NCBI GenBank assembly: GCA_037439965.1 | Contig: JBBIVB010000001.1 | Span: 31,895-95,894, forward strand | Length of the DNA stretch: 64,000 nt | Source: Candidatus Veblenbacteria bacterium | Lineage (GTDB): Bacteria > Patescibacteriota > Patescibacteriia > Veblenbacterales > UBA10138 | Direction: 5' to 3' | Shown: in pieces, positions 1 through 63,071 of the stretch | How the letters are laid out: the number at the start of each line of letters is the position of its first letter | Numbering within the stretch: position 1 is the stretch's first letter | Position numbers and translations under genes: made by a program | Notes under the pieces: model-generated | Told to the model about the DNA's origin: nothing | Database searches by the model: none | Seen by the model: the letters and a program-made list of their open reading frames with translations, nothing else

Positions 1-317
1 TTGGTAAATTTATTCGTTCCTGGAGTCTTGATGAACTTCCTCAATTTTTTAATGTACTCTTAGGGCAAATGAGTTTAGTAGGCCCAAGGCCTCACGAACC
101 GCAAGAGGTGGCAAAATATCAAACTAATCATAAAAAAGTACTAAGCATTAAGCCCGGTATTACTGGATTGGCTCAAATTTCTGGTCGTTCTAGTTTAAGT
201 TTTATTGATGAGGTACGCCTGGATAGCTTTTATATAGAGAACTGGTCTTTATTTTATGATTTATTTATCTTGCTTAAAACAATAGTAGTAATTTTTCAAA
301 GGAAATATGCAGCATGA
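1..317 (+). CDS. Bacterial sugar transferase (polyprenyl-phosphate hexose-1-phosphate transferase, WbaP/PglC-like), C-terminal part; 5' end lies outside the window
   Basis: Frame 3 from position 3 translates KFIRSWSLDELPQFFNVLLGQMSLVGPRPH..., the canonical C-terminal catalytic motif of the bacterial sugar transferase family. The reading frame is open to the window edge. Confidence 0.8.
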   Translation, partial: GKFIRSWSLDELPQFFNVLLGQMSLVGPRPHEPQEVAKYQTNHKKVLSIKPGITGLAQISGRSSLSFIDEVRLDSFYIENWSLFYDLFILLKTIVVIFQRKYAA

Positions 318-3656: not shown

Positions 3657-3674
3657 GATAACCTTAAAATTAAA

Positions 3675-6215: not shown

Positions 6216-6269
6216 AGTAATAAAGTCTTGACAAAACGTTACTTTGGGTGTAGTCTAATAAGTTGTCAT

Positions 6270-6428
6270 ATATTGTCAAAAGATAAATGGAGGAATTTGG
6301 GAATGTACGGGAAGCCTGTACGATTAAAATCAACATAGATTTAAATTGTACTCTTCACTAGTTTGAACACCACTTTAATTAGGTCACTTCAAGCCTTTCT
6401 CAAACCTCCAGTTATCTTTTGACAATTT
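6270..6428. repeat. Pair of 24-bp inverted repeats (22/24 match) flanking a 111-bp core, in the murJ upstream region
   Basis: 6270-6293 atattgtcaaaagataaatggagg; the reverse complement of 6405-6428 is aaattgtcaaaagataactggagg. Confidence 0.55.
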
Positions 6429-6493
6429 TTATTAGTCAAAACCCCACCCGGCTATCAAACTAACGGGTACTCCAATGCTCTTTATTTCATAAT

Positions 6494-6513
6494 TTTCCTG
6501 TAAATACAGGAAA
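6494..6513. promoter_or_regulatory. Perfect 20-bp palindrome TTTCCTGTA-aa-TACAGGAAA, candidate operator
   Basis: 9-bp arms are exact reverse complements. Located about 160 bp upstream of the murJ start. Confidence 0.3.
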
Positions 6514-6550
6514 CTCGTCTAATTTATTTTAGGCGAACAACTCTCTTCTC

Positions 6551-6571
6551 AATTCTATTAAAAATAGAATT
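6551..6571. promoter_or_regulatory. Perfect 21-bp palindrome AATTCTATT-aaa-AATAGAATT, candidate operator or hairpin
   Basis: 9-bp arms are exact reverse complements. About 100 bp upstream of the murJ start. Confidence 0.3.
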
Positions 6572-6671
6572 AAAGAATGAAGTAATTAGTATTAAGAGTT
6601 CTTCTGTTAATTGGTAGCCAGGTGTGGTTTTGTATTCATTTTTTAAGAAAAAACGCTATAATTAATTTGTT

Positions 6672-8261
6672 ATGGATACAGCAACTGTACCATCGGTACC
6701 TAAATTTAGTGTTAGCACTAATGCATTAATTATTGGTTTCTTTTCTGTAGTTTCCAGAATTTTAGGGCTGTTGCGCGATCGTTTATTAGCTTCGCATTTT
6801 GGTGCTGGCGATGTATTGGATGCTTACTATGCTGCTTTTAAGCTACCTGATTTTATTTTTAATATATTTATTTTAGGGGCTTTGTCGTCTGCTTTTATTC
6901 CGGTATTTATTGAAGCCAGAAAACATCAAGGGGAAAGCATGGCTTGGCAAATAACCAATACTGTTTTGAACTTTCTTTTGTTGGTAATGTCTATTTTATG
7001 TTTGCTGAGTATCATCTTTGCTCCGCTATTTGTACCGGTCTTAACACCTGGATTTAGTCTAGCCAAACAAGCCCTAACTATTAATTTAACGCGTTTAATG
7101 ATGGTGGCCATAATTTTTTTGGCAGTAAGTAATTTATTTGGCGCCGTACTTAACTCCTATAAAAGATTTATTGCCTATGGCTTAGCTCCTGTGCTATACA
7201 ATATTGGCATTATCTTGGGTTTATTTATCTTGGTGCCGTTTTTTGGGCCATCTGGCTTAGCTGGTGGTGTATTATTAGGTGCTATACTTCATACTGCCTG
7301 TCAATTACCAACTATACGCCGTTTAGGTTGGCGTTGGGGTCTTAAATTTTTTCTGGCTGACTATTATTTCCAAAAAATCATTCGTTTAATGATTCCTCGC
7401 ACCTTAGGACTTGCTGTTTACTCTATTAATCAACTAGTGATTACTTATTTTGCTTCACTTTTGGCTAGTGGTAGTCTAGCTGCCTTTGTTTTAGCTACCA
7501 ACTTACAAAGTTTTCCTATTAATGTTTTTGGTGTGTCATTGGCCATAGCAGTTTTTCCTATCTTTAGTGAGTCCTTTGCTAATAACAAAAAACAAGAATT
7601 AATAGAACATTTAGCTAATTCTCTTAAAAGGGTATTGTTTTTCACTATACCTTTAAGCGTACTATTTTTAGTACTAAGAGCCCAAGTAGTTAGAATAATT
7701 TTAGGCAGTGGCAATTTTGATTGGGGAGATACTATTAACACCGCTAATGTTTTTGCCTTCCTCTCATTATCTTTAGTAGCAGAAAGTTTATTACCTCTTA
7801 TAGCTCGCGCCTTTTACGCTCAACACGATACTAAAACTCCAGTCATGGTTAGTATCTTAAGTGTCTTTTTAAATTTAACCTTGGCAACCTTTTTAATTAA
7901 GCCTTTGGGTATCTCCGGACTAGCTATAGCTTATGTTTCTTCTACCATCATCAACTTTTTAATCTTAACTTATTTATTAAGTAAACGTTTAAGCTATATG
8001 AATGCTAAAAGTATTGTTAATTCAGGCTGGCAGATGTTACAAGCCAGCTTGTTAGCGGGGATGGTCTGTTATGGTATTTTACATTTACTAGCACCCTTGG
8101 TAGATATGCATTCCTTTGCGGGGATTTTTATTCAAGGCGTATCAGCTGGTTTGGCCGGTTTATTAACCTATCTGTTTGTGGCTCATAAACTAAAAATTCA
8201 GGAGGTGTGTTTTGTTAAAAAATATCTTAATCTAATTTTAGCTAAATTAAAATTAGCTTGA
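6672..8261 (+). CDS. murJ: MurJ/MviN family lipid II flippase (MOP superfamily)
   Basis: N-terminal ILGLLRDRLLASHFGAGDVLDAYYAAFKLPDFIFNIF is the hallmark MurJ signature. The protein is about 14-TM and 529 aa. Confidence 0.8.
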   Translation: MDTATVPSVPKFSVSTNALIIGFFSVVSRILGLLRDRLLASHFGAGDVLDAYYAAFKLPDFIFNIFILGALSSAFIPVFIEARKHQGESMAWQITNTVLNFLLLVMSILCLLSIIFAPLFVPVLTPGFSLAKQALTINLTRLMMVAIIFLAVSNLFGAVLNSYKRFIAYGLAPVLYNIGIILGLFILVPFFGPSGLAGGVLLGAILHTACQLPTIRRLGWRWGLKFFLADYYFQKIIRLMIPRTLGLAVYSINQLVITYFASLLASGSLAAFVLATNLQSFPINVFGVSLAIAVFPIFSESFANNKKQELIEHLANSLKRVLFFTIPLSVLFLVLRAQVVRIILGSGNFDWGDTINTANVFAFLSLSLVAESLLPLIARAFYAQHDTKTPVMVSILSVFLNLTLATFLIKPLGISGLAIAYVSSTIINFLILTYLLSKRLSYMNAKSIVNSGWQMLQASLLAGMVCYGILHLLAPLVDMHSFAGIFIQGVSAGLAGLLTYLFVAHKLKIQEVCFVKKYLNLILAKLKLA

Positions 8262-8271
8262 TATTTTATTT

Positions 8272-10077
8272 ATGGATTCATCTTTAATTCGTAACTTTTG
8301 CATTATTGCACATATTGATCATGGTAAATCAACTTTAGCTGATAGATTTTTAGAATTAACTGAAACAGTGGCTAAACGAGAAATGAAGGAACAGGTTTTA
8401 GACCAAATGGATATAGAAAGGGAACGGGGGATTACTATTAAATTAACGCCGGTATTAATGAAATGGCAAAATTATTATTTAAATTTAATAGATACCCCAG
8501 GTCATGTTGATTTTAATTATGAGGTTTCTCGCTCGCTTGCTTGTGTTGAAGGGGCTATACTCTTAGTCGACGCTACACAAGGCATTCAAGCACAAACTTT
8601 AGCTAATTTGCATTTAGCACAAAACGCTGGTTTGGTAATTATTCCAGTGATTAACAAAATTGATTTACCTAATGCTCAAATAGAACAAACTGCCGAAGAA
8701 ATAGCTAATTTATTAAATATAAATAAATCAACTATTCATCAAATATCAGCTAAAACCGGCACTGGGGTTAAAGAATTGTTAAATAGTATTATTAAGCTGG
8801 TACCACCACCAAAATCAATTAATAATCAGTTTGCGGCTTTGATCTTTGACTCGCATTATGATGAATGGCGCGGGGTTGTAGCCTCTGTTAGAATTATGTC
8901 TGGTAGTATTAAAGCTGGTGATAAATATTGGCTAACAGGCAGTAAAATTACCGGTGAAGTATTGGAAGTAGGAATCTATAATCCTAAAAGCCAATCAGTA
9001 AAAGAACTAACCAGCGGTCAGATAGGCTATTTAGTTACTGGAGTAAAAAAAATTGAATTAGTGCGAGTGGGTGATACAGTAGCAAAAGAACAAGGGCAGA
9101 GAGTTTTAGCTGGTTATCAAGAGCCAAAACCAATGGTTTTTGCTGGTTTTTATCCTGCTGGCAGGGGAGAGAGTAAAAATTTACGAGATAGTTTAACTAA
9201 ATTAAAACTCAATGATGCTAGCCTAATTTTTGAACCTGAAAATTCTCAAGCATTAGGTTTTGGTTTTAGAGTTGGTTTTTTAGGCTTACTACATTTAGAA
9301 ATCACCAAGGAGCGGCTAAAGCGAGAATTCGCTATACAGCCAGTAATTACCTCGCCTTCTGTGGCTTACCAAATAGAACTGAATGATAACCAACGTATAA
9401 CAGTTAAAGGTGCGGCTGAATTACCGCCTGAATATAAAATTAAAAAAATATACGAGCCATATGTCATTATGGAAATTATCTGCCCGCAAATATATTTAGG
9501 CAATGTGATGACGTTAGTGCAAGAATATCGTGGTGTTTGGCAAAATACTAACTACCTATCTGCTGGAGTTAATAAAAAATCCGACCGCGCTATCTTAAAA
9601 TATTACGCTCCGTTATCTACTTTGTTATTAGATTTTTATGACCAGTTAAAAAGCGTTAGCCAAGGTTATGCCTCGTTAAATTATGAATTTTTAGAATACC
9701 GTCCTTGCTGTATTAAAAAATTAGATATTCTTATTGCCGACGAAATAGTTGAATCACTAGCTACGTTAGTTTATGAAGATGAGGCTTATTTCAGAGCGCG
9801 AGCCATAGTTACCAAATTAAAAGAAATAATCCCCAGACAAATGTTTGAAGTAAAGATTCAAGCTAGCCTAGGGGGCAAAATAATAGCTGCTGAAAGATTA
9901 TCTGCTATGCGTAAAGATGTATTAAAACGCGCTTCTTCTGGCGGTGACGTAACGCGTAAAATAAAATTATTGCAAAAACAAAAAAGAGGCAAAAAGCGAA
10001 TGCGGGAACAAGGCCACGTCACTATTCCCCAAGAGGCTTATCTTAGTTTATTAACCAAACAAATTAAAACTGAATAG
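8272..10077 (+). CDS. lepA: Translation elongation factor 4 (LepA)
   Basis: IRNFCIIAHIDHGKSTLADRFLELT G1 motif, DTPGHVDF G3 motif, 601 aa with a LepA C-terminal domain. Confidence 0.9.
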   Translation: MDSSLIRNFCIIAHIDHGKSTLADRFLELTETVAKREMKEQVLDQMDIERERGITIKLTPVLMKWQNYYLNLIDTPGHVDFNYEVSRSLACVEGAILLVDATQGIQAQTLANLHLAQNAGLVIIPVINKIDLPNAQIEQTAEEIANLLNINKSTIHQISAKTGTGVKELLNSIIKLVPPPKSINNQFAALIFDSHYDEWRGVVASVRIMSGSIKAGDKYWLTGSKITGEVLEVGIYNPKSQSVKELTSGQIGYLVTGVKKIELVRVGDTVAKEQGQRVLAGYQEPKPMVFAGFYPAGRGESKNLRDSLTKLKLNDASLIFEPENSQALGFGFRVGFLGLLHLEITKERLKREFAIQPVITSPSVAYQIELNDNQRITVKGAAELPPEYKIKKIYEPYVIMEIICPQIYLGNVMTLVQEYRGVWQNTNYLSAGVNKKSDRAILKYYAPLSTLLLDFYDQLKSVSQGYASLNYEFLEYRPCCIKKLDILIADEIVESLATLVYEDEAYFRARAIVTKLKEIIPRQMFEVKIQASLGGKIIAAERLSAMRKDVLKRASSGGDVTRKIKLLQKQKRGKKRMREQGHVTIPQEAYLSLLTKQIKTE

Positions 10078-10247
10078 CTGGGGCAATCGTTAAAATAACC
10101 ATTGTCAAAGCTACGATGATTGATAAAATTATCCAGAATCTTCTTATGGTTTTGGAGCGCATAATATAAGAATATCTTTTTTATAATAAAAAGAAAAGAG
10201 TTAAATTATATTTTAAGAAATAGTGTTAATATGTTATAATTTAATCT

Positions 10248-10628
10248 ATGGAAAAACAGCGCTGGTGGAGCCTATTAACCTCAAATTTATTTATATTAAT
10301 AGCGCTGACGGCGGTGCTTATTATAGCCATAGCGTTAGTTAAAAGCTTCATTCGTCGCCAAGAGTTAGCTCAAGAAATAGCTAAGATTAAAAATGACATT
10401 TCTGTTTACCGAACTAAACAAGAGGAACTGTCTAATTTAATTACTTATTTACAAAGCAGTGAATTTAAAGAAAAAGAAGCTAGGTTAAAATTTAATTTAA
10501 AAAAGCCAAATGAGCATGTAGTAGTACTGCCAAACGATGAGCAAAATAAAAAAATCGTCAACGAACCAACTACCTCAGCTAACCTAGCTAATTGGCAAAA
10601 ATGGTGGAATTATTTTTTTAACAAATAA
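10248..10628 (+). CDS. Septum formation initiator family protein (FtsB/DivIC-like)
   Basis: Single N-terminal TM helix, then a coiled coil, then the KEKEARLKFNLKKPNEHVVVL motif typical of FtsB/DivIC. An extended -10 (TGtTATAAT) lies 11 nt upstream of the ATG, with no obvious SD. Confidence 0.5.
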   Translation: MEKQRWWSLLTSNLFILIALTAVLIIAIALVKSFIRRQELAQEIAKIKNDISVYRTKQEELSNLITYLQSSEFKEKEARLKFNLKKPNEHVVVLPNDEQNKKIVNEPTTSANLANWQKWWNYFFNK

Positions 10629-10657
10629 CAATATTTTAACAAATAACAATATAAAAT

Positions 10658-11791
10658 ATGACATCTAAAACTACGCCTAACAGTAAAAAAATTCTACAGG
10701 AATTAAATCAATATACCGAGCAAAAAGAAACCTCTCATGATATTGAACGCTTTGTTAAAGAAGAACCTATTAAAAAAGTTGTTAAACCAAAATTCTGGGA
10801 CGGTAAAATAAAAAAATTAGCTGAGACTATAAAATCAGCAACTACTGATAAAACTAATGATAAATCTACTAGCAACGCTACTAAACACAAAATCCATTAT
10901 ACTAAATATTTAACTTATGCTTTGGTAATAGTGGTATTGCTATTTATTGTTTACAGTTGTTTATTCTTACTATTTAGAATAGATAGACAATATCCTAAAA
11001 GTTCGCAGTTTAATGTTTTGCCTATTGGTTTAGTAGATGGTGAGATGGTGTGGTTTAATGATTTAAATCAAGACGTTAGAACACTTTTGGCTTTTTATCA
11101 AAAAAATTATGACAACGGCACTTTAACTCAAATACCCCCTCAAGCTGAAATAGAAAAAGCGGTTTGGGAAAGAATAGTCAGTGAAATAACTATTAAACAT
11201 TTTGCTCAGCATAATAATATAGCAGTCACCCCTGTTGAAATTACTAATGAAGTAGAAAATATCATTAGGGAGTTCGGTAGCCGAGGAGAGTTAGAAAATT
11301 TTATTAAAAAGAATTATATTTGGAATCTTAATCAATTTGAGAAAAAAATTATTGCTCCATATCTATTACGTAATAAGGTAATTTTATGGTTTGAACAGAA
11401 AGAATCTGTTAAAACTTCAGTGACACAACTAGCTGAACAAATTTACCAGGATATAATTGCTAACAAAATAACTTTTAGTGAAGCTAATGATAAATATTCA
11501 AAAGATTCAGCTGCCAAATCAAGAGGTGGTAGTTTGGGAACATTTACGTGGGGAACAATGGTGCCGGAGTTTGAACAAGCCTTAAAACAACTAAAAGTAG
11601 GGGAGATTAGTAAACCGGTGCAAACTGAATTTGACTGGCATATTATCCGCCGAGATCCATTGCCAGCTGAAGAAACAGACACCACTAAAGTAGCGGCCAG
11701 TCATATTTTAATTACTGCTTTTGATTTCGATGAATGGCTAAAAACTGAACGTGGCAAAAATAATGTCGTCCTTTGGCTACGTATACCTTAA
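10658..11791 (+). CDS. Membrane-anchored PpiC-type (parvulin) peptidyl-prolyl cis-trans isomerase, PrsA/SurA-like
   Basis: TM helix near residues 85-105. C-terminal SKDSAAKSRGGSLGTFTWGTMVPEFEQA...WHIIRR matches the parvulin rotamase domain. Confidence 0.6.
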   Translation: MTSKTTPNSKKILQELNQYTEQKETSHDIERFVKEEPIKKVVKPKFWDGKIKKLAETIKSATTDKTNDKSTSNATKHKIHYTKYLTYALVIVVLLFIVYSCLFLLFRIDRQYPKSSQFNVLPIGLVDGEMVWFNDLNQDVRTLLAFYQKNYDNGTLTQIPPQAEIEKAVWERIVSEITIKHFAQHNNIAVTPVEITNEVENIIREFGSRGELENFIKKNYIWNLNQFEKKIIAPYLLRNKVILWFEQKESVKTSVTQLAEQIYQDIIANKITFSEANDKYSKDSAAKSRGGSLGTFTWGTMVPEFEQALKQLKVGEISKPVQTEFDWHIIRRDPLPAEETDTTKVAASHILITAFDFDEWLKTERGKNNVVLWLRIP

Positions 11792-11821
11792 AATTATGGA
11801 CTTATATAATCAACTTTAATC

Positions 11822-11895
11822 TGGAGCCCCCTGCCAGAATCGAACTGACGTATGTGGTTTACGATACCACTGTTCTGCCACTGAACTAAGGGGGC
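11822..11895 (-). tRNA. tRNA-Thr (anticodon CGT), CCA encoded
   Basis: The reverse complement folds as a cloverleaf: acceptor GCCCCCT/AGGGGGC, anticodon stem GTGGT/ACCAC with loop ATCGTAA, T-arm GTTCGATTC, 3' UCCA. Confidence 0.8.
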
Positions 11896-12003
11896 TATTA
11901 ATGATATCAGCCTTAGTTTGATTTGCTCTTCGGGCGAAAGAAGTGGAATATTAAGTTCAAAGACTGGACACTTCTTACTTAGCCGTTCCCTTTAAGAAGT
12001 AGA

Positions 12004-12077
12004 TGGAGCGGGTAACGGGACTCGAACCCGTCTATCAACCTTGGGAAGGTCGCGTAATACCCCTATACTATACCCGC
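12004..12077 (-). tRNA. tRNA-Gly (anticodon CCC), CCA encoded
   Basis: The reverse complement has acceptor GCGGGTA/TACCCGC, U8-A9, anticodon stem CGACC/GGTTG with loop TTCCCAA, T-arm GGTTCGAGTCC, discriminator U plus CCA. Confidence 0.8.
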
Positions 12078-12202
12078 CTGTGTCTACTTTACTGGATGGA
12101 AGAAGCGAACATACTAACTAATTATACTAATTTCCTTCCCCTAAAAAATAAACCAGTCTAACAGGATTATAATCAATAAATCATAAATAAGCAATACTAA
12201 AA

Positions 12203-12889
12203 ATGCCTTTGATCGACTTTAGGAATGTAAGTAAAATATACCTAGGCAACCTAGAGGTTGTTAAGGGTGTTAATTTATCTATTGAAGATGGTGAGTTTGT
12301 TTCTATTGTTGGCCAATCTGGGGCTGGTAAAACTACTTTAATTCGTATGTTGATTGTTGAGGAAAAAGTAAGCCGGGGTCGTATTGTAGTAGGGGATTGG
12401 GATATTACTCATATTAAAAATCGGGAAATTCCTATTTTACGCAAACAAATCGGCGTAGTATTTCAAGATTTTAAATTATTGCAGCGCAAAACCGTTAGCG
12501 AAAACGTAGCCTTTGCTTTAGAGGTTTCAGGAGTGAAAACTAATAAAATAAAAGCCTTAGTGCCACAATTATTACATATTGTAGGTTTAGAGGATAAAGC
12601 TTCACGTTGGCCTAAAGAGCTGTCGGGCGGCGAACAGCAACGGGTCGCTATAGCACGCGCTTTAGCTCACCGCCCTAAAATTTTAGTAGCTGATGAACCA
12701 ACCGGCGATCTTGATTCTATTAACACCAAAGAAATTATAGTCCTTTTGCAAAAAATCAACGAATTTGGCACCACTGTTATTTTAGTAACCCACAATAAAG
12801 AGGTGGTTAATATGCTAAAAAAACGAGTGGTTACTATGGATCATGGAGAAATTATCTCCGACCAAGAGCGTGGTCGTTATCTTATTTAA
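12203..12889 (+). CDS. ftsE: Cell division ATP-binding protein FtsE
   Basis: 228 aa ABC ATPase with Walker A GQSGAGKTT, LSGGEQQRVAIARAL signature, and FtsE-typical size and N-terminus. Confidence 0.85.
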   Translation: MPLIDFRNVSKIYLGNLEVVKGVNLSIEDGEFVSIVGQSGAGKTTLIRMLIVEEKVSRGRIVVGDWDITHIKNREIPILRKQIGVVFQDFKLLQRKTVSENVAFALEVSGVKTNKIKALVPQLLHIVGLEDKASRWPKELSGGEQQRVAIARALAHRPKILVADEPTGDLDSINTKEIIVLLQKINEFGTTVILVTHNKEVVNMLKKRVVTMDHGEIISDQERGRYLI

Positions 12890-12892
12890 TTT

Positions 12893-13810
12893 ATGTTATT
12901 ATTATCTTTTTATCGCATTTTAAAATTCGGACTGCAAAATTTTGTCCGTAATTTTTGGTTGTCCTTAGTAACTATCACTATTATTACTTTAAGTTTGTTG
13001 TCGGTTAGTATTTTAGGATTGATAACAATTATCTCACAAAAAGCGCTGGATAACTTAGAGCAAAAAATAGATATTGGCGTATATTTAAAACCAAAATTAA
13101 CCGAAAGGCAAATTTTAGATTTAAAAAGCGAAGTAGAATCATTGCCCGGTGTTAAAGCTGTAGCTTATATTACAGCTGATGAAGCTTTGCAAAAATTTAA
13201 AGAAAAATACCAAAACAATGAACAAATAGGGGAGGCGCTGATACTTTTAGGTGTAAATCCTTTGGGTGCCAGTTTGCGCATTAAAGCCTTTTCTGATAAA
13301 GATTACCAAACTGTGCTAGATACTTTAGAAAACGAACGCTACCAAGATTTAATCCAAGAAGCTAGATTTGAGGATTATCGCCAAGTGATTAGTGGCCTTA
13401 ATGAACTAACCTTAAAGGTTAAACGTGCAGGGATATTTACTAGTTTGATTTTCTTGATTATTGCACTATTAGTTGTCTTTAACACCATTCGTATTAATAT
13501 TTATACCCAACGCGAAGAAATTGAAATAAAACGCTTAGTAGGCGCTACTAATGCTTTTATTCGCGGCCCCTTTACTATAGAGAGTATTTTGTATGCTTTA
13601 CTTGCCACTCTTTTAACCGCGTTGATTTTCTGTATTTCCTTGCGCTGGATAGACCCTTATGTCAGTACACTTTTTAACGGTTCTGACTTTAGCCTAACAA
13701 CTTATTTTCAACAATATGGCTTAATATTTTTCGGCACGCAGTTTTTAAGCGCCACTATTTTAAATATCCTAGCTTCTTATGTTGCTATGCGGCGGTATTT
13801 AAAAGTATAG
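12893..13810 (+). CDS. ftsX: Cell division permease FtsX
   Basis: Directly downstream of ftsE, 305 aa, four TM segments with a large periplasmic loop, and the KRLVGATNAFIRGPF motif. Confidence 0.75.
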   Translation: MLLLSFYRILKFGLQNFVRNFWLSLVTITIITLSLLSVSILGLITIISQKALDNLEQKIDIGVYLKPKLTERQILDLKSEVESLPGVKAVAYITADEALQKFKEKYQNNEQIGEALILLGVNPLGASLRIKAFSDKDYQTVLDTLENERYQDLIQEARFEDYRQVISGLNELTLKVKRAGIFTSLIFLIIALLVVFNTIRINIYTQREEIEIKRLVGATNAFIRGPFTIESILYALLATLLTALIFCISLRWIDPYVSTLFNGSDFSLTTYFQQYGLIFFGTQFLSATILNILASYVAMRRYLKV

Positions 13811-14038
13811 GTAAATCTTTATAAATAAAATTCCCAGGCTGATTATAAACCAGGAAATTTTGATTTTCATTTTATTTCAAAAAAGCTACATAACAAAGGA
13901 TAATCAAAACTACGGTTATAATTATTATCATCTTAAACTCCTAATTGTTAATTTTTCGATTTTTATTATTTTTAAAATATTATGATATCTTACTTACTAG
14001 AGTCAAGTTAAACTTTTTGTTATTATTTATTTAGCCAC

Positions 14039-14067
14039 CTTGACGTGAAGTCTAAATTAAATTATCA
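14039..14067 (+). promoter_or_regulatory. Sigma70-like promoter for tRNA-Gln (TTGACG-17-TATCAT)
   Basis: -35 TTGACG at 14039-14044, a 17-nt spacer, and -10 TATCAT at 14062-14067, placed 17 nt before the tRNA 5' end. Confidence 0.35.
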
Positions 14068-14084
14068 TAAGCACGTTATTTTGG

Positions 14085-14158
14085 TGGGGGATCGTCTAAA
14101 GGTAGGACACCACCCTTTGGAGGTGGGTATCGTGGTTCGAGTCCACGTCCCCCAGCCA
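14085..14158 (+). tRNA. tRNA-Gln (anticodon TTG), CCA encoded
   Basis: Acceptor UGGGGGA/UCCCCCA with a U1:A72 pair and G73 discriminator (known GlnRS identity elements). Anticodon stem CCACC/GGTGG with loop CTTTGGA, T-arm GGTTCGAGTCC, 3' GCCA. Confidence 0.8.
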
Positions 14159-14170
14159 ATTAGTAAAGTT

Positions 14171-14260
14171 TCGATTTTTCGCCTCGCCCGAATGTTTCGC
14201 ATTTTGCGGGATCAGAAATCAGCGTCCGGATTTTCGCGGAAAAAAGTTCGGATTTTGTTC
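14171..14260 (+). repeat. Array of four direct repeats of a 13-14 nt motif (TCG-N-ATTTT-SCGS) immediately 3' of tRNA-Gln
   Basis: tcgatttttcgcc (14171), tcgcattttgcgg (14197), ccggattttcgcgg (14226) and ttcggattttgttc (14247), spaced 22-29 bp apart. Confidence 0.5.
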
Positions 14261-14292
14261 AAGAGACACAGCCTTTTACTGTCTAGGGCTAT

Positions 14293-14509
14293 AATAAAAG
14301 ATAAGGAGGAAAAAATTTTAGTTTGCCGCAACAAGGGCAAGGATTATTATTTTTTCCATGGCGGTCATATAGAATTTGGTGAATCCTCAAAGCAAGCTTT
14401 ACAACGCGAACTTAGGGAGGAGTTGGGTTTAACTGCGGATAGCTTTACCTTTTTTATCAAACACAGGTTCGCGAAATTACTACTAAAAGTTTGGAAATCT
14501 GATATATAA
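14293..14509 (+). pseudogene. Nudix hydrolase remnant (Nudix box only)
   Basis: Translates KILVCRNKGKDYYFFHGGHIEFGESSKQALQRELREELGL, the GX5EX7REUXEEXGU Nudix box. No in-frame canonical start follows the AGGAGG upstream. Only about 27 aa follow the box. The annotated upstream ORF portion overlaps tRNA-Gln. Confidence 0.45.
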
Positions 14510-14748
14510 TAAATAAAAAATATGACAGAAAATAATGAAACTAAACCAAAATGTTGCCGATGTGACCAAATATGGTAAATTCTACCAAAAATATTTTCAT
14601 CTGCTTTAAAGCGCTGGTAATCTCAAGTGTTACATACTAACCATTATTTTATTAATTTATATTTTATTAATTTAGTTTATTACTATAATGTAGCTTATTT
14701 TAAATTAAGCAAGGTTGATTTTTGTATAGGGAGACGTAAAATAGGGGT

Positions 14749-15006
14749 ATGAACGAGACCGAAATTTCCAAAGAAATAGAATCCATCAAGGAGCGTAATA
14801 GAAAAGTGGAGTTAGATAAAGCTTGGGAATTATCATGGACTAGACGGTTGTTAATTCTTATTGGCACCTATATTCTGGCAGGAGTATGGCTTGAGATAAT
14901 TAAAGCTAATAATCCGTGGCAAAATGCCTTTGTACCAACATTTGGGTATTTATTATCAACCTTTACTATACCAATTGTTAAAAAGTGGTGGGTAAAAAAT
15001 AGATAG
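14749..15006 (+). CDS. Small hypothetical membrane protein (two predicted TM helices)
   Basis: 85 aa ORF with a charged N-terminus followed by two hydrophobic stretches. No family recognised. Confidence 0.4.
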   Translation: MNETEISKEIESIKERNRKVELDKAWELSWTRRLLILIGTYILAGVWLEIIKANNPWQNAFVPTFGYLLSTFTIPIVKKWWVKNR

Positions 15007-15237
15007 AATTATTTTTACTAAAAGCGGATAGAGGAACCCGCCAAAGGCGAATATTTCGGGGCGCAACGTGCCAAGCAGTGCATATATTTTATGTACTAAT
15101 TTTAACTTGACTTTTATTTATAATGATATAAAGTTATGATAGCTGAAATAAACAAAAAATCGTAAATTTGGCTAAAAACCTAGTTTTTTGTACTTTAATA
15201 ATTCATTAAAACCTTAACAAACTCCTTGGAGGATATA

Positions 15238-16704
15238 ATGAAAAATATATTCTTTGTAATTGTTTTGCTGTTTTTATTAAACTCGCTGGTCCTAGCCCAA
15301 GATCCGGCTGTTAATTACATTCAGGCCTTTCCGGAAAAAAGTATGGTAAAAACAGGACAGGAATTTGATGTACTGGTTCGTATTAATACCGGTAAGCTAT
15401 CTGTATATTCCGCCAGCTTTATCCTGGATTATGGCGATACTTATAATCTGGATGTCGTCAGTGTTTCAGGGGGCGATTTCCTGGGCAGTGATACATTATT
15501 TGCAGCTATTATCAAAGAAGCAAACAGTGATGTTCATATTTCTATCTCTCAAAAAGGTGAGGCTTCAGGTAATGTTGGCATCGGCACTTTGGCTATAGTA
15601 AGATTCCGCGCCAATAACGCCGCTAATATGGATATACGAACAGTTAATCTTTATTGCTTTGAGTTAGACATACGTGATCCCAATACTAAAGTTCTTAATA
15701 TTAGTAATACTTCTAGCCAACTGACTATTGCCGAGACTTTTGTCTGGCCAGGTGATGCTGACAACAACGGTATGGTTAACGAAGCAGATATTCTGCAAAT
15801 TGGTTTGCATTTTAACCAAACCGGTAATGCACGACCTAATGCTAGTTTTGATTGGAAAGCTCAACCAATGTCGTTTTGGAATGATACTACAGCGATGTAT
15901 GTTGACGCTACAGGGGACGGCAGAATCAAAATAAATGATATGCCAGCAATAGGATTTAATTACGGATTAACACACTTTAGTATAATGCCTATAACTTCCC
16001 CTTTGATACTACTAGACAAAATCGCGGCGGATAACAAGCTTTATGCTATTGCTAATCGTGTTGGTAATGAGGTTACCGTTTCAGTAATTGCTAAGGCGGC
16101 GCAAGATTTATTCGGCATCTCCTTTAAGATATTTTATAATCCTGCTGAGCTTTCCTTTATTGACGCTTATAATGGCGAATATATGCCCGGCGGTATCTTT
16201 TTTAAACATGTGGACACTAATCAAGGTTTACTAGCTTCTGCCGTAACTTTGACCAGAGGTGAAGATGGGGTAACAGATACTAAAAGCGTAATGATAGCGC
16301 GATTTAATATGCTAGACAATGATCTGAACTTACATTTCCAGGATGTTGTAGCGTATAACACTGCGGGTAATCGTATAGAATTTGAAGTTACTGATTTATC
16401 CGAAGTATTGGGGGTAAAAGATGAGATAGCGCCGACTGAATATTCATTGGCACAAAATTATCCCAATCCGTTTAATCCCACTACAACAATCAGGTATACA
16501 TTACCACGGGCTTCAACAGTAACGTTGATCATCTATAATGTTCTTGGTCAGAAAGTAATTTCTTTGGTAAATAGCCACCAAAATCCTGGAACTTACACAG
16601 TTCCGGTTAATGCTTCAGAACTATCTGATGGTATATATTTCTATACTTTGAGTGCCGGAGCCGGAACATTCACACAAACAAAAACAATGATGTTGGTTAA
16701 GTAA
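15238..16704 (+). CDS. Secreted cohesin/dockerin-like protein with a type IX secretion system C-terminal sorting domain (Por_Secre_tail-type CTD)
   Basis: GGAGG RBS 6 nt upstream of the ATG at 15238. Signal peptide MKNIFFVIVLLFLLNSLVLAQDP. Dockerin-like DADNNGMVNEADIL and DATGDGRIKINDM repeats. C-terminus LAQNYPNPFNPTTTIRYTLP...LIIYNVLGQKV...SDGIYFYTL matches the T9SS CTD consensus. Codon usage is visibly richer in CTG/CCG/GGC/GCC than in flanking genes. Confidence 0.7.
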   Translation: MKNIFFVIVLLFLLNSLVLAQDPAVNYIQAFPEKSMVKTGQEFDVLVRINTGKLSVYSASFILDYGDTYNLDVVSVSGGDFLGSDTLFAAIIKEANSDVHISISQKGEASGNVGIGTLAIVRFRANNAANMDIRTVNLYCFELDIRDPNTKVLNISNTSSQLTIAETFVWPGDADNNGMVNEADILQIGLHFNQTGNARPNASFDWKAQPMSFWNDTTAMYVDATGDGRIKINDMPAIGFNYGLTHFSIMPITSPLILLDKIAADNKLYAIANRVGNEVTVSVIAKAAQDLFGISFKIFYNPAELSFIDAYNGEYMPGGIFFKHVDTNQGLLASAVTLTRGEDGVTDTKSVMIARFNMLDNDLNLHFQDVVAYNTAGNRIEFEVTDLSEVLGVKDEIAPTEYSLAQNYPNPFNPTTTIRYTLPRASTVTLIIYNVLGQKVISLVNSHQNPGTYTVPVNASELSDGIYFYTLSAGAGTFTQTKTMMLVK

Positions 16705-16728
16705 CAAGTGCTTAACATAAATTTCAGG

Positions 16729-16771
16729 CACCTTAATACAATTCTAATACAATTGTATTAGGGTGTTTTTG
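16729..16771 (+). terminator. Intrinsic terminator (15-bp stem, 7-nt loop, TTTTTG) after the T9SS-CTD gene
   Basis: CACCTTAATACAATT-ctaatac-AATTGTATTAGGGTG followed by TTTTTG. Confidence 0.55.
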
Positions 16772-16839
16772 TAAACTTTAAGTAGTTTCCTTCGTTTAAT
16801 TAATTGACTTAAATTACAAAAAACTATATAATTATCTCT

Positions 16840-17790
16840 ATGCTAAAATTTAATAAAACAATTATTATAGTTATCGTGTTAATAGTTGGTATCAGTTTAG
16901 CTGATTATTTTATTTTTAACAGCAAAATCGCTGAATGGGAAAAAAAATTAAACCAAAGTATTAAAGAAAACCAAACTCTGGCTAATCAAATAGCTTCATT
17001 AACCGAAGCTTATAATAAACTACTAGCTACCTCTACGCAAACTACTAACACTAATAACACTAATAAAGTTAATAAAGAAAAAACACAGGAGCAGCTTTTA
17101 ACCGAAGCTGTTAGTAAAGTGGCACCGGCAGTAGTTTCTATTGTTATTACCAAAGATGTACCACAACTTGAAGTAGTATATATTAATCCTTTTGGTGATG
17201 ACCCATTTTTTAAAGATTTTAATATCCGTGTGCCGCAATATAGACAAAAAGGCACTGCTGAGCAAAAAGTAGGAGCTGGCACTGGTTTTATTGTTAAATC
17301 TTCTGGCTATATTATTACCAATCGCCATGTGGTTAATGATCAAAATGCGCACTATACTGTACTGTTAACTGACGGCAGCCAAAAATCAGCTCAAGTTATA
17401 TATCGTGATAATGATCTTGATTTAGCTATTTTAAAAATTGAGGGCAATAATTATTCTACTGTGACTTTTGGCAATTCCGACACCTTAAAACTTGGTCAGT
17501 CAGTTTTTGCTATAGGCAACGCATTGGGAGAATATAACAACTCGGTTTCGGTAGGTATTATTTCTGGTTTAAATCGTGACATTACTGCTTTTGGTGGCAG
17601 TAAATCAGAAAAATTACAAGGAGTTATTCAAACTGATGCTGCTATAAACCCTGGAAATTCTGGCGGACCATTAGTTAATTTAAACAGTGAAGTGATTGGT
17701 ATTAATGTGGCTATGGCTTCAGGAGAAAACATTGGTTTTGCTATTCCGATTAATGCTGTTAAAGCCATTATTAACTCTCAAATAAAATAA
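16840..17790 (+). CDS. Trypsin-like serine protease, S1C (HtrA/DegP-like) catalytic domain without PDZ, membrane anchored
   Basis: N-terminal TM helix, catalytic triad contexts ITNRHVV, DLDLAILKI and GNSGGPL, 316 aa. Confidence 0.75.
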   Translation: MLKFNKTIIIVIVLIVGISLADYFIFNSKIAEWEKKLNQSIKENQTLANQIASLTEAYNKLLATSTQTTNTNNTNKVNKEKTQEQLLTEAVSKVAPAVVSIVITKDVPQLEVVYINPFGDDPFFKDFNIRVPQYRQKGTAEQKVGAGTGFIVKSSGYIITNRHVVNDQNAHYTVLLTDGSQKSAQVIYRDNDLDLAILKIEGNNYSTVTFGNSDTLKLGQSVFAIGNALGEYNNSVSVGIISGLNRDITAFGGSKSEKLQGVIQTDAAINPGNSGGPLVNLNSEVIGINVAMASGENIGFAIPINAVKAIINSQIK

Positions 17791-18136
17791 CCATCTAAAG
17801 CACCTTGTATAAAAACTCCGCTGGAGATTATTACCCAGGGAGTGAATATTTGATTATAATTTTTCATTAATTTAATAAACCAGCACAAAACAATTATTAT
17901 CAGATAAAACACATACCAAAAGCAAGCACAAAAATTCTTAGCAATCAAGTCGTGTAATAATACTGGCTGAATAAATAGTATTTCAAATAATAAATTACCA
18001 AGTCAAATTAAAAGGTAAGCTGCCAAAGCCAAATCAACAATTCATTAATTTTTATTATTTTTCCTTATTCATTGTTTGTTTTATAATTAATTTTGTTTAG
18101 CTATCTTTAGTAATTAATATTTATCTAGTCAAAAAA

Positions 18137-18296
18137 ATGGCCTATAAGATTTTTAAATTAATATTAGCTATTGTGTTATGTGAACTAGCGGTGGTTGTTG
18201 GTTCATTTTTTTACTAACCTTAATATTGCAAGTTGGTATGCTGAATTAATTAAACCAAGTTTTAATCCGCCTAATTGGTATTTGACATTATCTTAA
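18137..18296 (+). pseudogene. TspO/MBR (tryptophan-rich sensory protein) N-terminal remnant, frameshifted and truncated
   Basis: Frame a gives MAYKIFKLILAIVLCELAVVVGSFFY-stop. The next frame gives NLNIASWYAELIKPSFNPPNWYLTLS-stop. The WY..L.KPSFNPPNW motif is the conserved TspO N-terminal signature and the remaining ~100 aa are absent. Confidence 0.5.
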
Positions 18297-18355
18297 TCTT
18301 ACTTGGATAAATTTTATTGCAGTGCTTAATTTTGTTATTTGGTAAATAAATTAAT

Positions 18356-29228: not shown

Positions 29229-29778
29229 TAGGGGAGATGTAATGTAAGATAATAACGCGGATTGTTAAAACAGCGATAAAAAGTATATTAATTTATTATC
29301 AGACAAAAAATAATTTAGCATATTTTTGCTATCAAACTGTCCTAAAAATATACCTCTTTGATAAAATGGGAGAGGTTTAAAATTTGAATAATCTTTAATA
29401 TTAAGCGTCGCACAATAAATCTTATACGAAGCATAAGATATGCTATAGTAATCTAAAACTATAAAAGAGTGAAATGCTAGAATTCAGCACATTATTTTTA
29501 TCTTTAGCCTTCTTTTTCAAGAGTTCACGGCGTTTTATATCGTTTCCATAATTAAAAGTAAATACTTAAAAATTATACCTAGCTAGTATTATTATCCAAG
29601 ACCTACTATTAAGCGAAGTTAACTATTATTAGATGATTCATCTTTTGATGATTCGTTTTTGCTTTTATCATATATTGTTGTTGGTTTTATCTTAATAAAA
29701 ATTGATTCATATCGATTTGATCAAATTAATAAAATTTAGTTAATTATATTTAATTTTCAGTTAAGTGTCGTAAAATAT

Positions 29779-45206: not shown

Positions 45207-45209
45207 AGT

Positions 45210-46058
45210 TTATAAAGTTGTAATTGGTCTAAATTGAGTAATATAAAATTTACCAGCACTATAAGCCCATTCAATATCTTGCGGAGATTTATAGTGTTTT
45301 TCTATACTAAGGCATATTTTAGCTAACTCCAGAATTTGCTTACCAGTTAACTTTTGCTTACCAATTTTATCTTTAATAATATTTTTCCAAACATTACCTC
45401 CCTGTACCATGCCTTCTAAATAACGCGATAAGCCATAGCACGCCTTTATAATCATTTGATTTTTATCTTTAGTAACTGGGTAATAGTAAAAGCAATACCA
45501 GCGATTTCTGACTGCATCATAGCCTGCACTACCACGGCCACGGAAACTTTAGCTTTATGTAATTTTTTCTCATGAAGATAGAAAATAGCGCGCGGCGTAA
45601 ATAATGAGGACCAACAATCCTTTACTCTTTTAAGCAAAGTTTTTAATTGGTGTTTAAATAGGTTTCTAACTCCCCTACCCATGAGGCTTGTGAGTAATCC
45701 TCTGCTGTAACACTAGAGCGAACAGCAATCAATTTTACTTTGAGTTTTTTAAATTCTGTTAAAATTATTTTTTGTAAATCTTTTGGCATTTTAGCTTTAT
45801 TTATCATATCCCGAATAACTCGTGAAACTCGTTCTATTGTACTTACTTCATCATATTTTACATTTTTTAGTTAAGCCTCAATATCTACTTCCAAATCAGT
45901 TTCGTGAAAAATCTGTTAAAAGCCGATGTCAATATTACAAACCCCGGCGGCACGGGAATACCAGCTTGAGTCATCTCTCCTAAACTCGCCCGTTTACCAC
46001 CAGCTAAATGAACATCTTTTTTGGAAATTTTAGTAAAAGCTAAAATATGTGTTTCCAT
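45210..46058 (-). pseudogene. Pyruvate phosphate dikinase / PEP synthase N-terminal (PPDK_N, ATP-grasp) domain gene, disrupted by an in-frame stop and two or more frameshifts
   Basis: Minus-strand pieces in different frames are: METHILAFTKISKKDVHLAGGKRASLGEMTQAGIPVPPGFVILTSAFNRF...-stop; EVDIEA-stop-LKN...LIAVRSSVTAEDYSQASWVGELETYLNTN-stop; ...CWSSLFTPRAIFY...VAVVVQAMMQSEIAGIAFT; and ...QDIEWAYSAGKFYITQFRPITTL-stop. Confidence 0.6.
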
Positions 46059-46511
46059 ACATCAAAAGTTTACCAAAGCCTCTTACTCTTGACAAATTTA
46101 CTAAAATTAACGGTTAAAGTGAAAAAATCGTAAATTATAATTAAAATCAATCAAAAAAGCCAATAAAATGTCAAGGAGTTAAAAGTGAAGACTTTAATAT
46201 ACTGGAAACACTTGTAAAAACCTGGCTAACGCTCTGTACAATTATGAGTTCATTAGGTATTATCGCAATCGTTTATGAGATCATCGCGGAAATCGACGAC
46301 AACCAGCTATTCTAAAATTGAAAAAATGTTCGCACTAATGAAAGATGGAGAAACCGGCCTCGTTGTTGGCCACTCTACTTTTGGACCATAAAGACACATC
46401 ACATCTTTACTATTAGTACCTTTGAACAAAGACATCATAAAAGCATCAAAAAGCCGTTCTAACCAAGGTTCCCAATAATAACTCAGACTTTCTTTTTTAT
46501 TTGATTTTTAT

Positions 46512-47339
46512 TCATATCTTCTTAATTATACCTTTATTGGCGTCAACTTCTACCATATCTCTATCTTTTAATACCTCTAAGATACTTTTGATTCCAACAA
46601 TACAAGGCGTCCGCAACTCTCGTGCCACGATGGCAGTGTGACAAATTACCCCTCTATCTTCTGTTACATACAATAGCCGCCGCATTTTTCATGGCTGGTA
46701 CTAGTGCAGGAAAGGTAGTATGAGAAACCATAATATCTCCCTGTTTCATTTTAGGAATATCTCTTCGGGCATATTAATAATCCTAACTAGACCTTTAGCT
46801 AATCCTGGGCAAGCACAGGTACCACTTAAATTACTAATTTTAATCTTTAGCTCCCGCTCAAATTTTTGTTTACCTATAAATTTTTTAGCCTCCTTACTAA
46901 CCAATACCCTTTGTTTACCATTACTAAAATATACCACACTAAATTTCATCCGTTCGTTAGCTAACCGGGAAAAATCTTTCCCTTTAAGAACTAACGGCAA
47001 TTCTTTAGGTAATAAATATTTTGTTTACAATAATGACAATCCAGCACGTCTGCTAATTTCCGCTAAAATAAAATCTAACACAAAACAACCGTGAAAATAG
47101 CAATCTTTACGAAAACCTTTAATCCATATGATATCAGCCATTATATCAAACAGATGCTTTTCCTTATTTGATAATTTAAGTTCTTTGATGATTTTTCTGC
47201 GGACACGAGCAACTTTATTCATTTTGATACGCATTTTCTTTAATTCGGCATCCGGATTAACATCCTCATGCAATAAGCCACGCCAAACCTCTAGATAATA
47301 ATCAAAAGTATAAGCCGGACCCAAATAAGTGTAAGGCAC
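46512..47339 (-). pseudogene. PEP-utilizing enzyme (rifampin phosphotransferase / PEP synthase-like) C-terminal mobile-domain gene remnant, multiple frameshifts; the decayed region may extend to about 48027
   Basis: Fragments LSGTCACPGLAKGLVRIINMPEEI, MKQGDIMVSHTTFPALVPAMKNAAAIV and (next frame) TEDRGVICHTAIVARELRTPCIVGIKSILEVLKDRDMVEVDANKGIIKKI-stop together reconstruct a PEP-utilizing mobile domain (GxxxPG...TE.GG..sH.AIvARE..P.vVG). The ORF track shows only short ORFs here. Confidence 0.55.
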
Positions 47340-48027
47340 CCAACACCACTTTTGATAATGGTTGTATAACCGTTTTTTTATGCTAACCGATAACGAGGGA
47401 AATTGTTTTAATAATTCAGAAGTTGTATTACTAATAAACCAATATTTAACTTTTTTATTTTTTCTTAATACTCTTAAAATTCTAAATGATTCGATTTCTT
47501 CCTACTGTACTAATGACTGTCGCTCGGGTGTGATGAGTAAACTAAAAGTAGACGCTAAATCAATATTATCAGTTGGCGTTATTTTTTTCTCTAATAATTT
47601 CATTTGGCTTAAATATTGATGACGAAATAGCTGATTATGCCATGCTAAAAGTTTTTTATTAGATAAGTTTCAGTTTTTACTTACGATTTTTTTTGACAAA
47701 GGCAAAATATTTTTTATTTAAATCAATTGCATCGTGATGAATTTTATCTATCTTGTTTGGATTATTTATTACCACGTATAAAGTATTTTAATAATTGACC
47801 TTAATTCATCTTTGATAAAATAAGAGCCAGTATTATCCAAATTCTCTATAATCCACAAACAACTTTTTAATACCTTTTTGACTATAAATTTTATCTTGCA
47901 AGTCATAAATACCATGCTGTGATTCAGATATGATATTTAAACCTACCCGCTTAATTTCAAAATTTTTCCGCCAAATTAATTTCATAACTTTTTAGTTGGT
48001 TTAATACACCAAACCAACCTTTATATC

Positions 48028-53945: not shown

Positions 53946-53967
53946 AATCCCTTATATACGCGCGTTT

Positions 53968-53996
53968 ACTTTAACTAAAAAAACGCTTCACGTCAA
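53968..53996 (-). promoter_or_regulatory. Candidate promoter for the MreB paralog (TTGACG-17-TAAAGT on minus strand)
   Basis: The reverse complement of 53991-53996 is TTGACG; a 17-nt spacer follows; the reverse complement of 53968-53973 is TAAAGT. Confidence 0.3.
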
Positions 53997-54494
53997 CGCG
54001 CTTAAAATAAATAACAATAAAATTAGCGTAGTTTATTGAATTATAAAAATTGCCTGCCAAATAATTATCTATAATTTTTCTGCTATGAAAAATACGTTAC
54101 TAGGTAAATTTTTTAAATTAAACCACCGCCACTCCACTATCTTTTCTGACTCACAGGCCTTTAGTTCTCCATAAAAAGTTACACAATAAACCATGAGCGT
54201 TAGTGGTCATACATTACTTAAAGAAAATACTCGAACTATTTTAGCTACCAACGTTGTTTCCTCCTGAAATTCTCTTATTGCCGCCTGTTTAGAAGTTTCA
54301 CTAAAACGAATTTTGCCCATTTAAACCTAATAAAATTTTACTATCTTTTAAGACCATATTTTGGTAAACTATATAAATAGGCATATCCAGATGATACTCA
54401 AAAAGATAGAATGACATCTCCACGCATTAAAACTTTAAAATGTCTCGGTATAATCTCTAATTTAGCTTTATCTTTCCTCATAGAATCAAGTTGA

Positions 54495-62503: not shown

Positions 62504-62935
62504 AATAATATTATATTTAAAAAAAAATATTTAATCAATAAAAAGAGTTGATTCTAGATTTTCTAAAACCAACCCTTATTGTTTTTATTTTATTGAATAC
62601 AAACGAGCCCAGGACCACGCCAGAATTTAAGCTCTAGAATATAATACCATTTCTGGTAATTTATATTTTCCAATAATAAATAATTTCTCAGTGTGCGTTC
62701 GGTATAATTTGGTACATGAAGATTATATTCTACTTTGTTTTTCATGATAATTCCAAAAAATCTATATTTGTTTTATTTTATCAAAAAATAACAAGAAAAG
62801 ATATACTTATTCCCAAAAATAGCCAGCTTGATTACTTTAGAAAATTTTCCAAAAAAATATAAGAACAATAATTGTAAATTTATAATGACAATTTTTGTAT
62901 TTAGTAACATTTTAACAATTTACAAGTTTTTAATC

Positions 62936-62962
62936 AAAACCCCGAGGTAAACTCGGAGTTTT
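62936..62962 (-). terminator. Intrinsic terminator downstream of rplM-rpsI
   Basis: AAAACCCCGAG-gtaaa-CTCGGAGTTTT. In minus sense the stem is followed by TTTTGATT. Confidence 0.5.
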
Positions 62963-63071
62963 GAAATGAATTATCTCTTTTACCATCCTCTTTCGACAAA
63001 ACTACGGAAGGATTTAACAGAAAAACTAAAACGCTTCTATCTATACAACAGGATAAGATACTAAAAGTATT

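Follow-up and report, generated by a model that had tools for sequence, protein, structure and literature searches.

The window analyzed here is a 64-kb stretch (64,000 nucleotides) of a Candidatus Veblenbacteria genome (Patescibacteria; contig JBBIVB010000001.1, positions 31,895 to 95,894), and its subject is a 2.8-kb block between rseP and proS that consists of the remains of three pseudogenes: gene A, a His_Phos_1-family (histidine phosphatase) remnant, and gene B. The span 45207-48027 is the window's sole multi-kilobase stretch without an open reading frame (ORF) of at least 90 aa; non-overlapping ORFs of that length or more cover 87% of the window, and about 55 long ORFs run uninterrupted. 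The longest sense ORF of the block is 104 aa and the longest overall is an antisense ORF of 124 aa; the antisense ORFs of the block have no Pfam match, and Rfam, promoter, and terminator scans of it returned nothing above background. The G+C content is 34% for the window and ranges from 0.27 to 0.37 in the block, similar to the flanks and with no compositional break. An alternative genetic code was ruled out, as the flanking genes are read through with table 11.

For both main genes, the reading frames were joined by eye from the three-frame translation, the resulting reconstructions were searched, and lesions were mapped by frameshift-aware protein-to-DNA alignment using the intact homologues P0001 (gene A) and P0121 (gene B) as references. 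The reconstructed product of gene A has P0001 as its best match over the full length (66% identity, E 4.5e-211; 73.5% over matched codons), and fragments at 46749-46512 match the PEP-utilizers mobile domain (PF00391, E 3.5e-5 and 2.7e-14, profile positions 2-30 and 27-72). Gene A is interrupted by frameshifts, in-frame stop codons, and an in-frame deletion (Table 1), and it lacks 2 of the 16 positions that are invariant in the family and 17 of the 79 that are nearly so. In the swivel catalytic motif, T/S-x-x-G-G-x-x-x-H as defined previously (PMC12167813), the catalytic His is retained, the first Gly has become Arg (invariant G464->R), and two further residues are replaced (T467->I and A470->T). 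The GG-x-x-x-H core is present throughout the family and in 17/17 paralogues from the gene arrays of relatives, with the Thr three residues upstream in 16 of them; the copy designated K8 has a one-residue insertion. The ancestral gene A thus carried the swivel catalytic motif; the present sequence does not. By homology, gene A derives from the substrate-binding and phosphohistidine-swivel ("H-type") component of a two-component dikinase resembling rifampin phosphotransferase (RPH).

Gene B derives from a stand-alone ATP-grasp gene of a type whose relatives are PPDK_N proteins of 312-315 aa. Its four ORF fragments each match PPDK_N (PF01326, E 1e-10 to 5e-16; profile positions 2-38, 71-129, 129-189, and 253-311), and the reconstruction has the 314-aa protein P0121 as its best match (71% identity, 100% coverage, E 1.2e-133; 79% over matched codons). 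A deletion that removes an invariant ATP-grasp segment is also seen at the DNA level, where positions 722-832 of the closest related locus, L006, lie opposite just 18 nt of the window (blastn). Judged against 119 homologues, gene B no longer has 15 of the 80 invariant positions or 16 of the 83 near-invariant ones, whereas members of the family keep at least 72 of these 83; five of the invariant residues were changed by substitution.

The third remnant was found by tblastn of all proteins from two intact related loci against the whole window, a search that revealed no further copy of any module gene in the 64 kb. The query encoded at L001:7909-8487(-), which itself matches PF00300 (E 6e-5), yields fragments at 63-71% identity (summed E 4.9e-16) that span residues ~1-14, 45-85, and 118-137 of 192; the intact protein has 189-192 aa. 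Lenient frameshift-aware alignment of this remnant was too noisy, and the tblastn fragments were used instead. In relatives, the His_Phos_1 gene is likewise encoded divergently, just upstream of the PPDK_N gene.

Together, eight frameshifts and four nonsense codons fall within the 2.8 kb, along with two deletions that span multiple codons and a third gene that is largely gone, and the neighboring genes are intact while A and B carry multiple disabling lesions relative to their intact orthologues. Three of the four stops lie at Gln codons of the homologues, as expected for C-to-T changes. From their sequence, all three genes appear to be dead, and this copy can presumably no longer perform the function of the module to which they belonged. 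An earlier note, made from the letters alone, had described short or antisense ORFs only and two remnants on the minus strand; the ORF-free span and both remnants are borne out, the latter by the PF00391 and PF01326 matches at the expected places. The first had been placed at 47339-46512 over three frames; it is real, and it extends over 47985-46512 in six frame segments and covers the whole ~510-aa family. The in-frame TAA and at least two frameshifts noted in the PPDK_N remnant are likewise present (the TAA at 45873-45871, with three frameshifts in all). The count of two was too low, as the 450-bp "spacer" between them holds the plus-strand His_Phos_1 remnant, and the motif-removing deletions in both main genes had gone unnoticed.

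Table 1. Coordinates of the block, its lesions and its neighbors in the window, and of the intact module in related loci.
Feature	Coordinates	Strand	Details
Decayed block	48027-45207		Between rseP and DUF2127 gene
Pseudogene A	47985 (ATG) to 46512 (stop)	minus	~510-aa family, 100% covered; six frame segments
Five frameshifts in A	near 47886, 47789/88, 47670, 46763/62, 46671	minus	Frameshift-aware alignment
In-frame TAA in A	47677-47679	minus	P0001 position 103
~25-codon in-frame deletion in A	site 47574-47621	minus	Near-invariant LPTTWFVDSDGEDF motif gone, P0001 residues ~133-160
In-frame TAG in A	47502-47504	minus	Gln replaced, P0001 position 183
In-frame TAA in A	47025-47027	minus	Family-invariant Gln342 replaced
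Swivel catalytic motif in A	46617-46664	minus	Family T-x-x-G-G-x-x-x-H; window TEDRGVICH
His_Phos_1-family remnant	46185-46376	plus	Three tblastn fragments, different frames
Pseudogene B	46058 to 45210	minus	Stand-alone ATP-grasp (PPDK_N, "I-type") gene, 314 aa
Three frameshifts in B	near 45911/10, 45645/44, 45481/80	minus	Frameshift-aware alignment
In-frame TAA in B	45871-45873	minus	Gln replaced, P0121 position 63
~93-nt (31-codon) deletion in B	site 45429-45446	minus	Invariant GLGEAVVSGxxTPD ATP-grasp segment gone
holB	51751-50813	minus	
BNR-repeat protein gene	50804-49776	minus	
frr/RRF	49764-49210	minus	
rseP, intact	49140-48028	minus	Peptidase_M50 and PDZ; conserved upstream anchor of module
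DUF2127 membrane-protein gene, intact	45206-44721	minus	PF09900, E 2.5e-28; between pseudogene B and proS
proS, intact	44697-43444	minus	Downstream anchor
L087 (128-kb Logan contig)	module 8479-18246		holB-frr-rseP, four tandem ~500-aa swivel genes, HAD, two His_Phos_1 (opposite strand), PPDK_N
L172 and L005 (GCA_018817715.1)	L172:6481-17548, L005:1-10948		holB-BNR-frr-rseP, seven swivel genes, HAD, eighth swivel gene, two His_Phos_1, PPDK_N, Rrf2-SOD-suf
L001 (GCA_043824205.1)	247-8487		Five swivel genes, then His_Phos_1

On the minus strand the order of genes, 5' to 3', is holB, the BNR-repeat gene, frr, rseP, the block, the DUF2127 gene, proS, mreB, and mreC. The DUF2127 gene begins 4 nt past the stop of pseudogene B and had no match by tblastn against 171 related loci. 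The junction between PPDK_N and proS varies: it is empty in L006 and L168, holds DUF2127 in the window, and holds HTH and SDR genes in L169. Elsewhere in the window, a candidate NUDIX hydrolase pseudogene lies at 54069-54417 on the minus strand, within an ORF-free gap (53946-54494); its joined fragments match PF00293 (E 3e-9), and the reading frame is broken by a shift around 54300-54320 and by an in-frame stop codon around 54207-54209. This suggests that the genome has more than one decaying gene. Four other gaps of 550-716 bp without an ORF of at least 90 aa have no Rfam match (14510-15225, 17791-18355, 29229-29778, and 62504-63071); the first contains an 85-aa plus-strand ORF at 14749-15006 with no Pfam match, and the third has no ORF of at least 35 aa.

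The identity of the two main components follows from their intact homologues. Among PDB structures, the profile built for the gene A family matches swivel domains, and its match to RPH reaches beyond the swivel domain to cover residues 701-866 (E 1e-21); the ~400-residue N-terminal domain of the family matches the rifampin-binding domain of RPH, not PpsA. [quoted passage not shown] Gene A thus corresponds to a component of its own in which an RPH-type substrate-binding domain precedes the swivel domain, and gene B to a stand-alone ATP-grasp component matching that of RPH. By homology, A and B are accordingly the halves of one RPH-like small-molecule dikinase that is divided over two genes, as in the HpeHI/CreHI/PpsAB type, in which HpeH and HpeI relate to the RPH domains as A and B do (PMC12167813). 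The earlier note had described the pair as tandem decayed PEP-utilizing-enzyme genes; both are decayed, but they are different components of one enzyme and not tandem copies.

In relatives, rseP is followed by four to eight paralogous swivel genes of ~500 aa, a HAD phosphatase gene, His_Phos_1 in one or two copies encoded on the opposite strand, and a single 314-aa ATP-grasp gene. Each array protein combines a helical domain for substrate binding with a phosphohistidine swivel domain at its C terminus. Paralogues within one array are ~30% identical, and array positions are orthologous across genomes: sw1 copies share 45-51% identity, sw2 copies (including gene A of the window) 50-70%, and a third group 45-67%. 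The sw1 gene is immediately upstream of sw2 in 3/3 arrays and directly follows rseP where the upstream flank is known. Gene A is closest to the sw2 copies (G2 70%, S2 59%, and K2 50%, compared with ~30% for other paralogues), and these identities make it the orthologue of sw2, the second position of the array. Missing from the window are therefore sw1 and everything between sw2 and the His_Phos_1 gene, and a module of roughly 9-12 kb has been reduced to 2.8 kb.

L004 and L005 have identical DNA, and NCBI and ENA call its swivel array as proteins of 421, 365, 341, and 168 aa vs 415, 508, 516, and 523 aa, so public counts and lengths of swivel genes are unreliable. All contigs of close relatives with an intact PPDK_N gene (L006, L168, L169, L170, and L171) end 100-470 bp upstream of it, two of them inside an IS1595 transposase gene, which suggests the paralogue array, or a copy of the insertion sequence, as the place where assemblies stop. 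On the short contigs L170 (2-433) and L171 (2-346), an IS1595/ISXO2-like transposase gene is immediately upstream of the intact PPDK_N gene (P0123). In L169 (GCA_003543055.1), the upstream neighbor of PPDK_N is a different gene on the opposite strand.

The history of the junction was traced in 80 ProS-anchored loci from GTDB species representatives and 80 from metagenomes which, with L006, give 161 in which ProS was found. Of the 96 Patescibacteria loci in which both genes were found, 73 have rseP upstream of proS at a distance of less than 600 bp, and the other 23 have it farther off, with unrelated inserts of at least 600 bp; 65 of the 161 loci have no rseP in the fetched stretch. The rseP-proS adjacency is the ancestral arrangement, as it recurs in many named candidate phyla. 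PPDK_N stands directly upstream of proS-mreB-mreC only in the closest relatives of the window (L006, L168, and L169), where the gene is intact. L006, obtained by protein look-up, is the closest of all (ProS 86% and MreB 93% identical); ProS scans of genome and metagenome collections returned nothing closer than 78% (L007) and 72%. Several loci, including L007, L009, and L011, carry GenBank titles such as "uncultured Gammaproteobacteria bacterium" or "Saccharibacteria" despite typical Patescibacteria synteny and similarity, so these labels are unreliable for taxonomy.

Neighbor-joining trees with bootstraps on Kimura distances place these loci relative to one another. For RseP and RRF combined, the window groups with L007 (bootstrap 100) and the two with L087 and L172 (100); for ProS, the window groups with L006 (98) and both with L007 (100). 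The module after rseP is limited to one clade (bootstrap 100) that includes the window, L087, and L172, which L006 joins via the ProS tree, its contig breaking upstream of the ATP-grasp gene. In L007, rseP is 175 bp from proS and no module remnant was detected in the spacer. The insertion at the rseP-proS junction is thus lineage-specific, with adjacency ancestral and the module restricted to one clade. Taking trees and synteny together, the most parsimonious course would be a single acquisition of the module at this junction by the ancestor of the clade, followed by complete loss in L007, which is nested among module-bearing genomes, and by partial deletion and pseudogenization in the window, with sw2, the histidine phosphatase gene, and the ATP-grasp gene as the survivors. 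The block is very probably the decaying remainder of an accessory module acquired in this way.

The acquisition appears old, because the module is spread across a clade whose RseP proteins are only 52-56% identical (window vs L087 and L172), gene B has diverged from its L006 copy as the core genes have (77-80% DNA identity for gene B and 78% for proS-mreB-mreC), and there is no compositional break or flanking repeat. Direct and inverted repeats around the block amounted to AT-rich chance matches alone, and no transposase remnants were found in the window; signs of recent mobility such as repeats, a compositional break, or a mobile-element gene are thus missing there. The eroding insertion between rseP and proS proposed in the earlier note agrees with the adjacency in 73 of 96 loci and with the presence of the module after rseP in one clade only, and its suggested comparison with related loci turned up intact copies in L087 and L172/L005 (whole module) and in L006 (ATP-grasp gene). 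Its appeal to recent relaxation of selection fits the decay alone; the insertion is old, and substitution-rate tests were equivocal. Of the functions it offered for the lost phosphotransferase, the antibiotic-phosphotransferase-like one is retained and PEP synthase is not.

Several observations weigh against a decayed, anciently acquired module. The lesions were called from assembled letters, so that individual sites may be sequencing errors, and three of the eight frameshifts fall in A or T runs of 4-5 bases. In amino-acid relative-rate tests, unique changes are in excess in gene B of the window when L087 or P0126 is the outgroup (35 vs 9 and 34 vs 15, respectively) but not when P0151 or P0123 is, and gene A shows little excess; as the outcome varies with the outgroup, substitutions alone are no proof of long neutral evolution, and rates and divergence ratios were not used as evidence. 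The neighbor-joining trees draw on just one or two proteins, none of the contigs from close relatives covers the full rseP-to-proS interval with an intact module, and 64 kb of the genome was seen, so that an intact second copy may lie elsewhere. The frameshifts in short A/T runs would suit the view that the genes are intact in the organism and that sequencing or assembly errors, such as homopolymer errors or a mis-polished low-coverage patch, created the frameshifts and stops. However, four lesions are base substitutions giving TAA or TAG, two in-frame deletions (25 and 31 codons) take out invariant motifs, five invariant residues of B and the three beside the catalytic His of A are substituted, 5-9 kb of the module is wholly gone, and the other ~55 long ORFs of the window are unbroken. 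Homopolymer error is therefore not a sufficient cause, and an artifact of this kind is very unlikely. The fragments might still be in use, whether as split polypeptides, by readthrough or programmed frameshifting, or in the role of novel small proteins or RNAs; in favor of this are the ATG-initiated ORFs of 50-104 aa that several fragments retain and the preserved codon for the catalytic His. Yet such use would require recoding at two types of stop codon and at eight shifts in both directions next to flanking genes in the standard code, with an ATP-grasp segment and an invariant gene A motif deleted, no excess signal in the Rfam or promoter and terminator scans, and no Pfam match among the antisense ORFs, and we consider it highly improbable.

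Two further alternatives concern the origin and the function of the genes rather than their decay. A recent horizontal insertion in this genome alone, or independent insertions at a hot spot, would account for the variable junction, with other inserts of at least 600 bp in 23 loci, for the different genes between the ATP-grasp gene and proS (DUF2127 here, HTH and SDR in L169), and for the IS1595 transposase gene that adjoins the ATP-grasp gene on its upstream side in L170 and L171. Such an origin is nevertheless improbable, given that the gene order and the orthologous array positions (sw1, sw2, and so on) directly after rseP are common to the window, L087, and L172 at an RseP identity of only 52-56%, and that the L006 divergence and the composition and repeat data speak for age. 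The Pfam names PPDK_N and PEP-utilizers, together with homologues named "pyruvate, water dikinase" or "phosphoenolpyruvate synthase" in some sources, invite the reading that A and B are remnants of a central-metabolism phosphoenolpyruvate (PEP) synthase or PPDK, and that their decay marks a loss of gluconeogenic PEP formation. This is scarcely credible, as the PEP-utilizers_C TIM barrel (PF02896) was absent from scans of the window fragments and of intact P0001 and P0121, the N-terminal domain of the gene A family resembles that of RPH, and the genes are split and occur in arrays of 4-8 divergent paralogues. In public records, 312-315-aa proteins with the ATP-grasp domain only are called "pyruvate, water dikinase" and some swivel proteins "phosphoenolpyruvate synthase/pyruvate phosphate dikinase" (e.g. 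P0131, P0134, P0028, and P0068); precomputed Pfam results for A- and B-type homologues list PF00391 or PF01326 alone. Such names could wrongly add a gluconeogenic step to metabolic reconstructions of the candidate phyla radiation (CPR).

The decayed rseP-linked module thus represents ordinary gene loss caught under way rather than an element of a new kind. Gene remnants account for 2.8 kb that had looked empty, and a dense, small Patescibacteria genome is seen to carry genes midway from inactivation to deletion, within a series of states that runs from intact (the module in L087 and L172/L005, the ATP-grasp gene in L006) through decaying (the window) to deleted (L007). By analogy with its homologues, the intact enzyme would work through an ATP-grasp protein that binds ATP and phosphorylates the swivel His, as in RPH, HpeHI, CreHI, and PpsAB, and a swivel domain that passes the phosphate to a small molecule held in the N-terminal domain of its own protein, for a net reaction of ATP + substrate + H2O -> AMP + Pi + phospho-substrate. 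The dikinase activity of the Patescibacteria family is accordingly a prediction from these homologues. A full-text literature search returned no description of an rseP-linked multi-paralogue array, and it is conceivable, although we hold this only tentatively, that the intact array is an undescribed multi-substrate phosphorylation system of Patescibacteria in which one ATP-grasp "charger" serves many acceptors of different specificity. If so, the array might, for example, inactivate antibiotics of hosts or competitors or scavenge small molecules, and the window and L007 would show the system to be dispensable and repeatedly lost. The uncharacterized intact RPH-like array beside rseP is a better lead than its decay, as a candidate for antibiotic or small-molecule modification in the CPR, where counts of "resistance-like" genes include RPH-like genes by homology alone (PMC8651080).

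The decay itself resembles a well-known process. Reduced genomes of obligate symbionts and pathogens lose dispensable genes by point lesions and then by deletions, and the block shows the same sequence of events, with the sister lineage L007 as the fully deleted end state. The setting differs, as this is a free-standing genome of the Patescibacteria metagenome-assembled type with otherwise dense coding and one other candidate pseudogene in 64 kb.

As an enzyme, the module has its relatives among three groups of phosphohistidine dikinases. PpsA and PPDK resemble it in their three-step phosphohistidine chemistry and in having an ATP-grasp (PPDK_N) domain and a swivel (PEP-utilizers) domain, whereas their PEP/pyruvate-binding TIM barrel was found neither in the window fragments nor in P0001 or P0121. 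RPH (PDB 5fbs and 5hv1) has the same three domains, namely ATP-grasp, helical substrate-binding, and His swivel, but carries them in that order on one polypeptide; in the window and in all intact relatives they are divided between two genes, with the swivel gene or genes upstream of the ATP-grasp gene. The identity of the binding domain to that of RPH is just 17%, so rifampin specificity is not implied. The closest likeness is to HpeHI, CreHI, and PpsAB, which have a separate ATP-grasp component of ~35-40 kDa, as in the Patescibacteria module (PMC12167813), and a second component that joins a substrate-binding domain to a swivel domain at the C terminus, where the T/S-x-x-G-G-x-x-x-H motif lies; each component is homologous to its counterpart domains in RPH. 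Unlike these systems, the Patescibacteria module has arrays of 4-8 divergent paralogues served by a single ATP-grasp gene, its H-type proteins are ~510 aa compared with the 71-kDa HpeH, and all copies in the window are pseudogenes. Finally, the Patescibacteria module is linked to HAD and histidine-phosphatase genes, whereas the HpeHI-type systems are linked to genes of aromatic catabolism.

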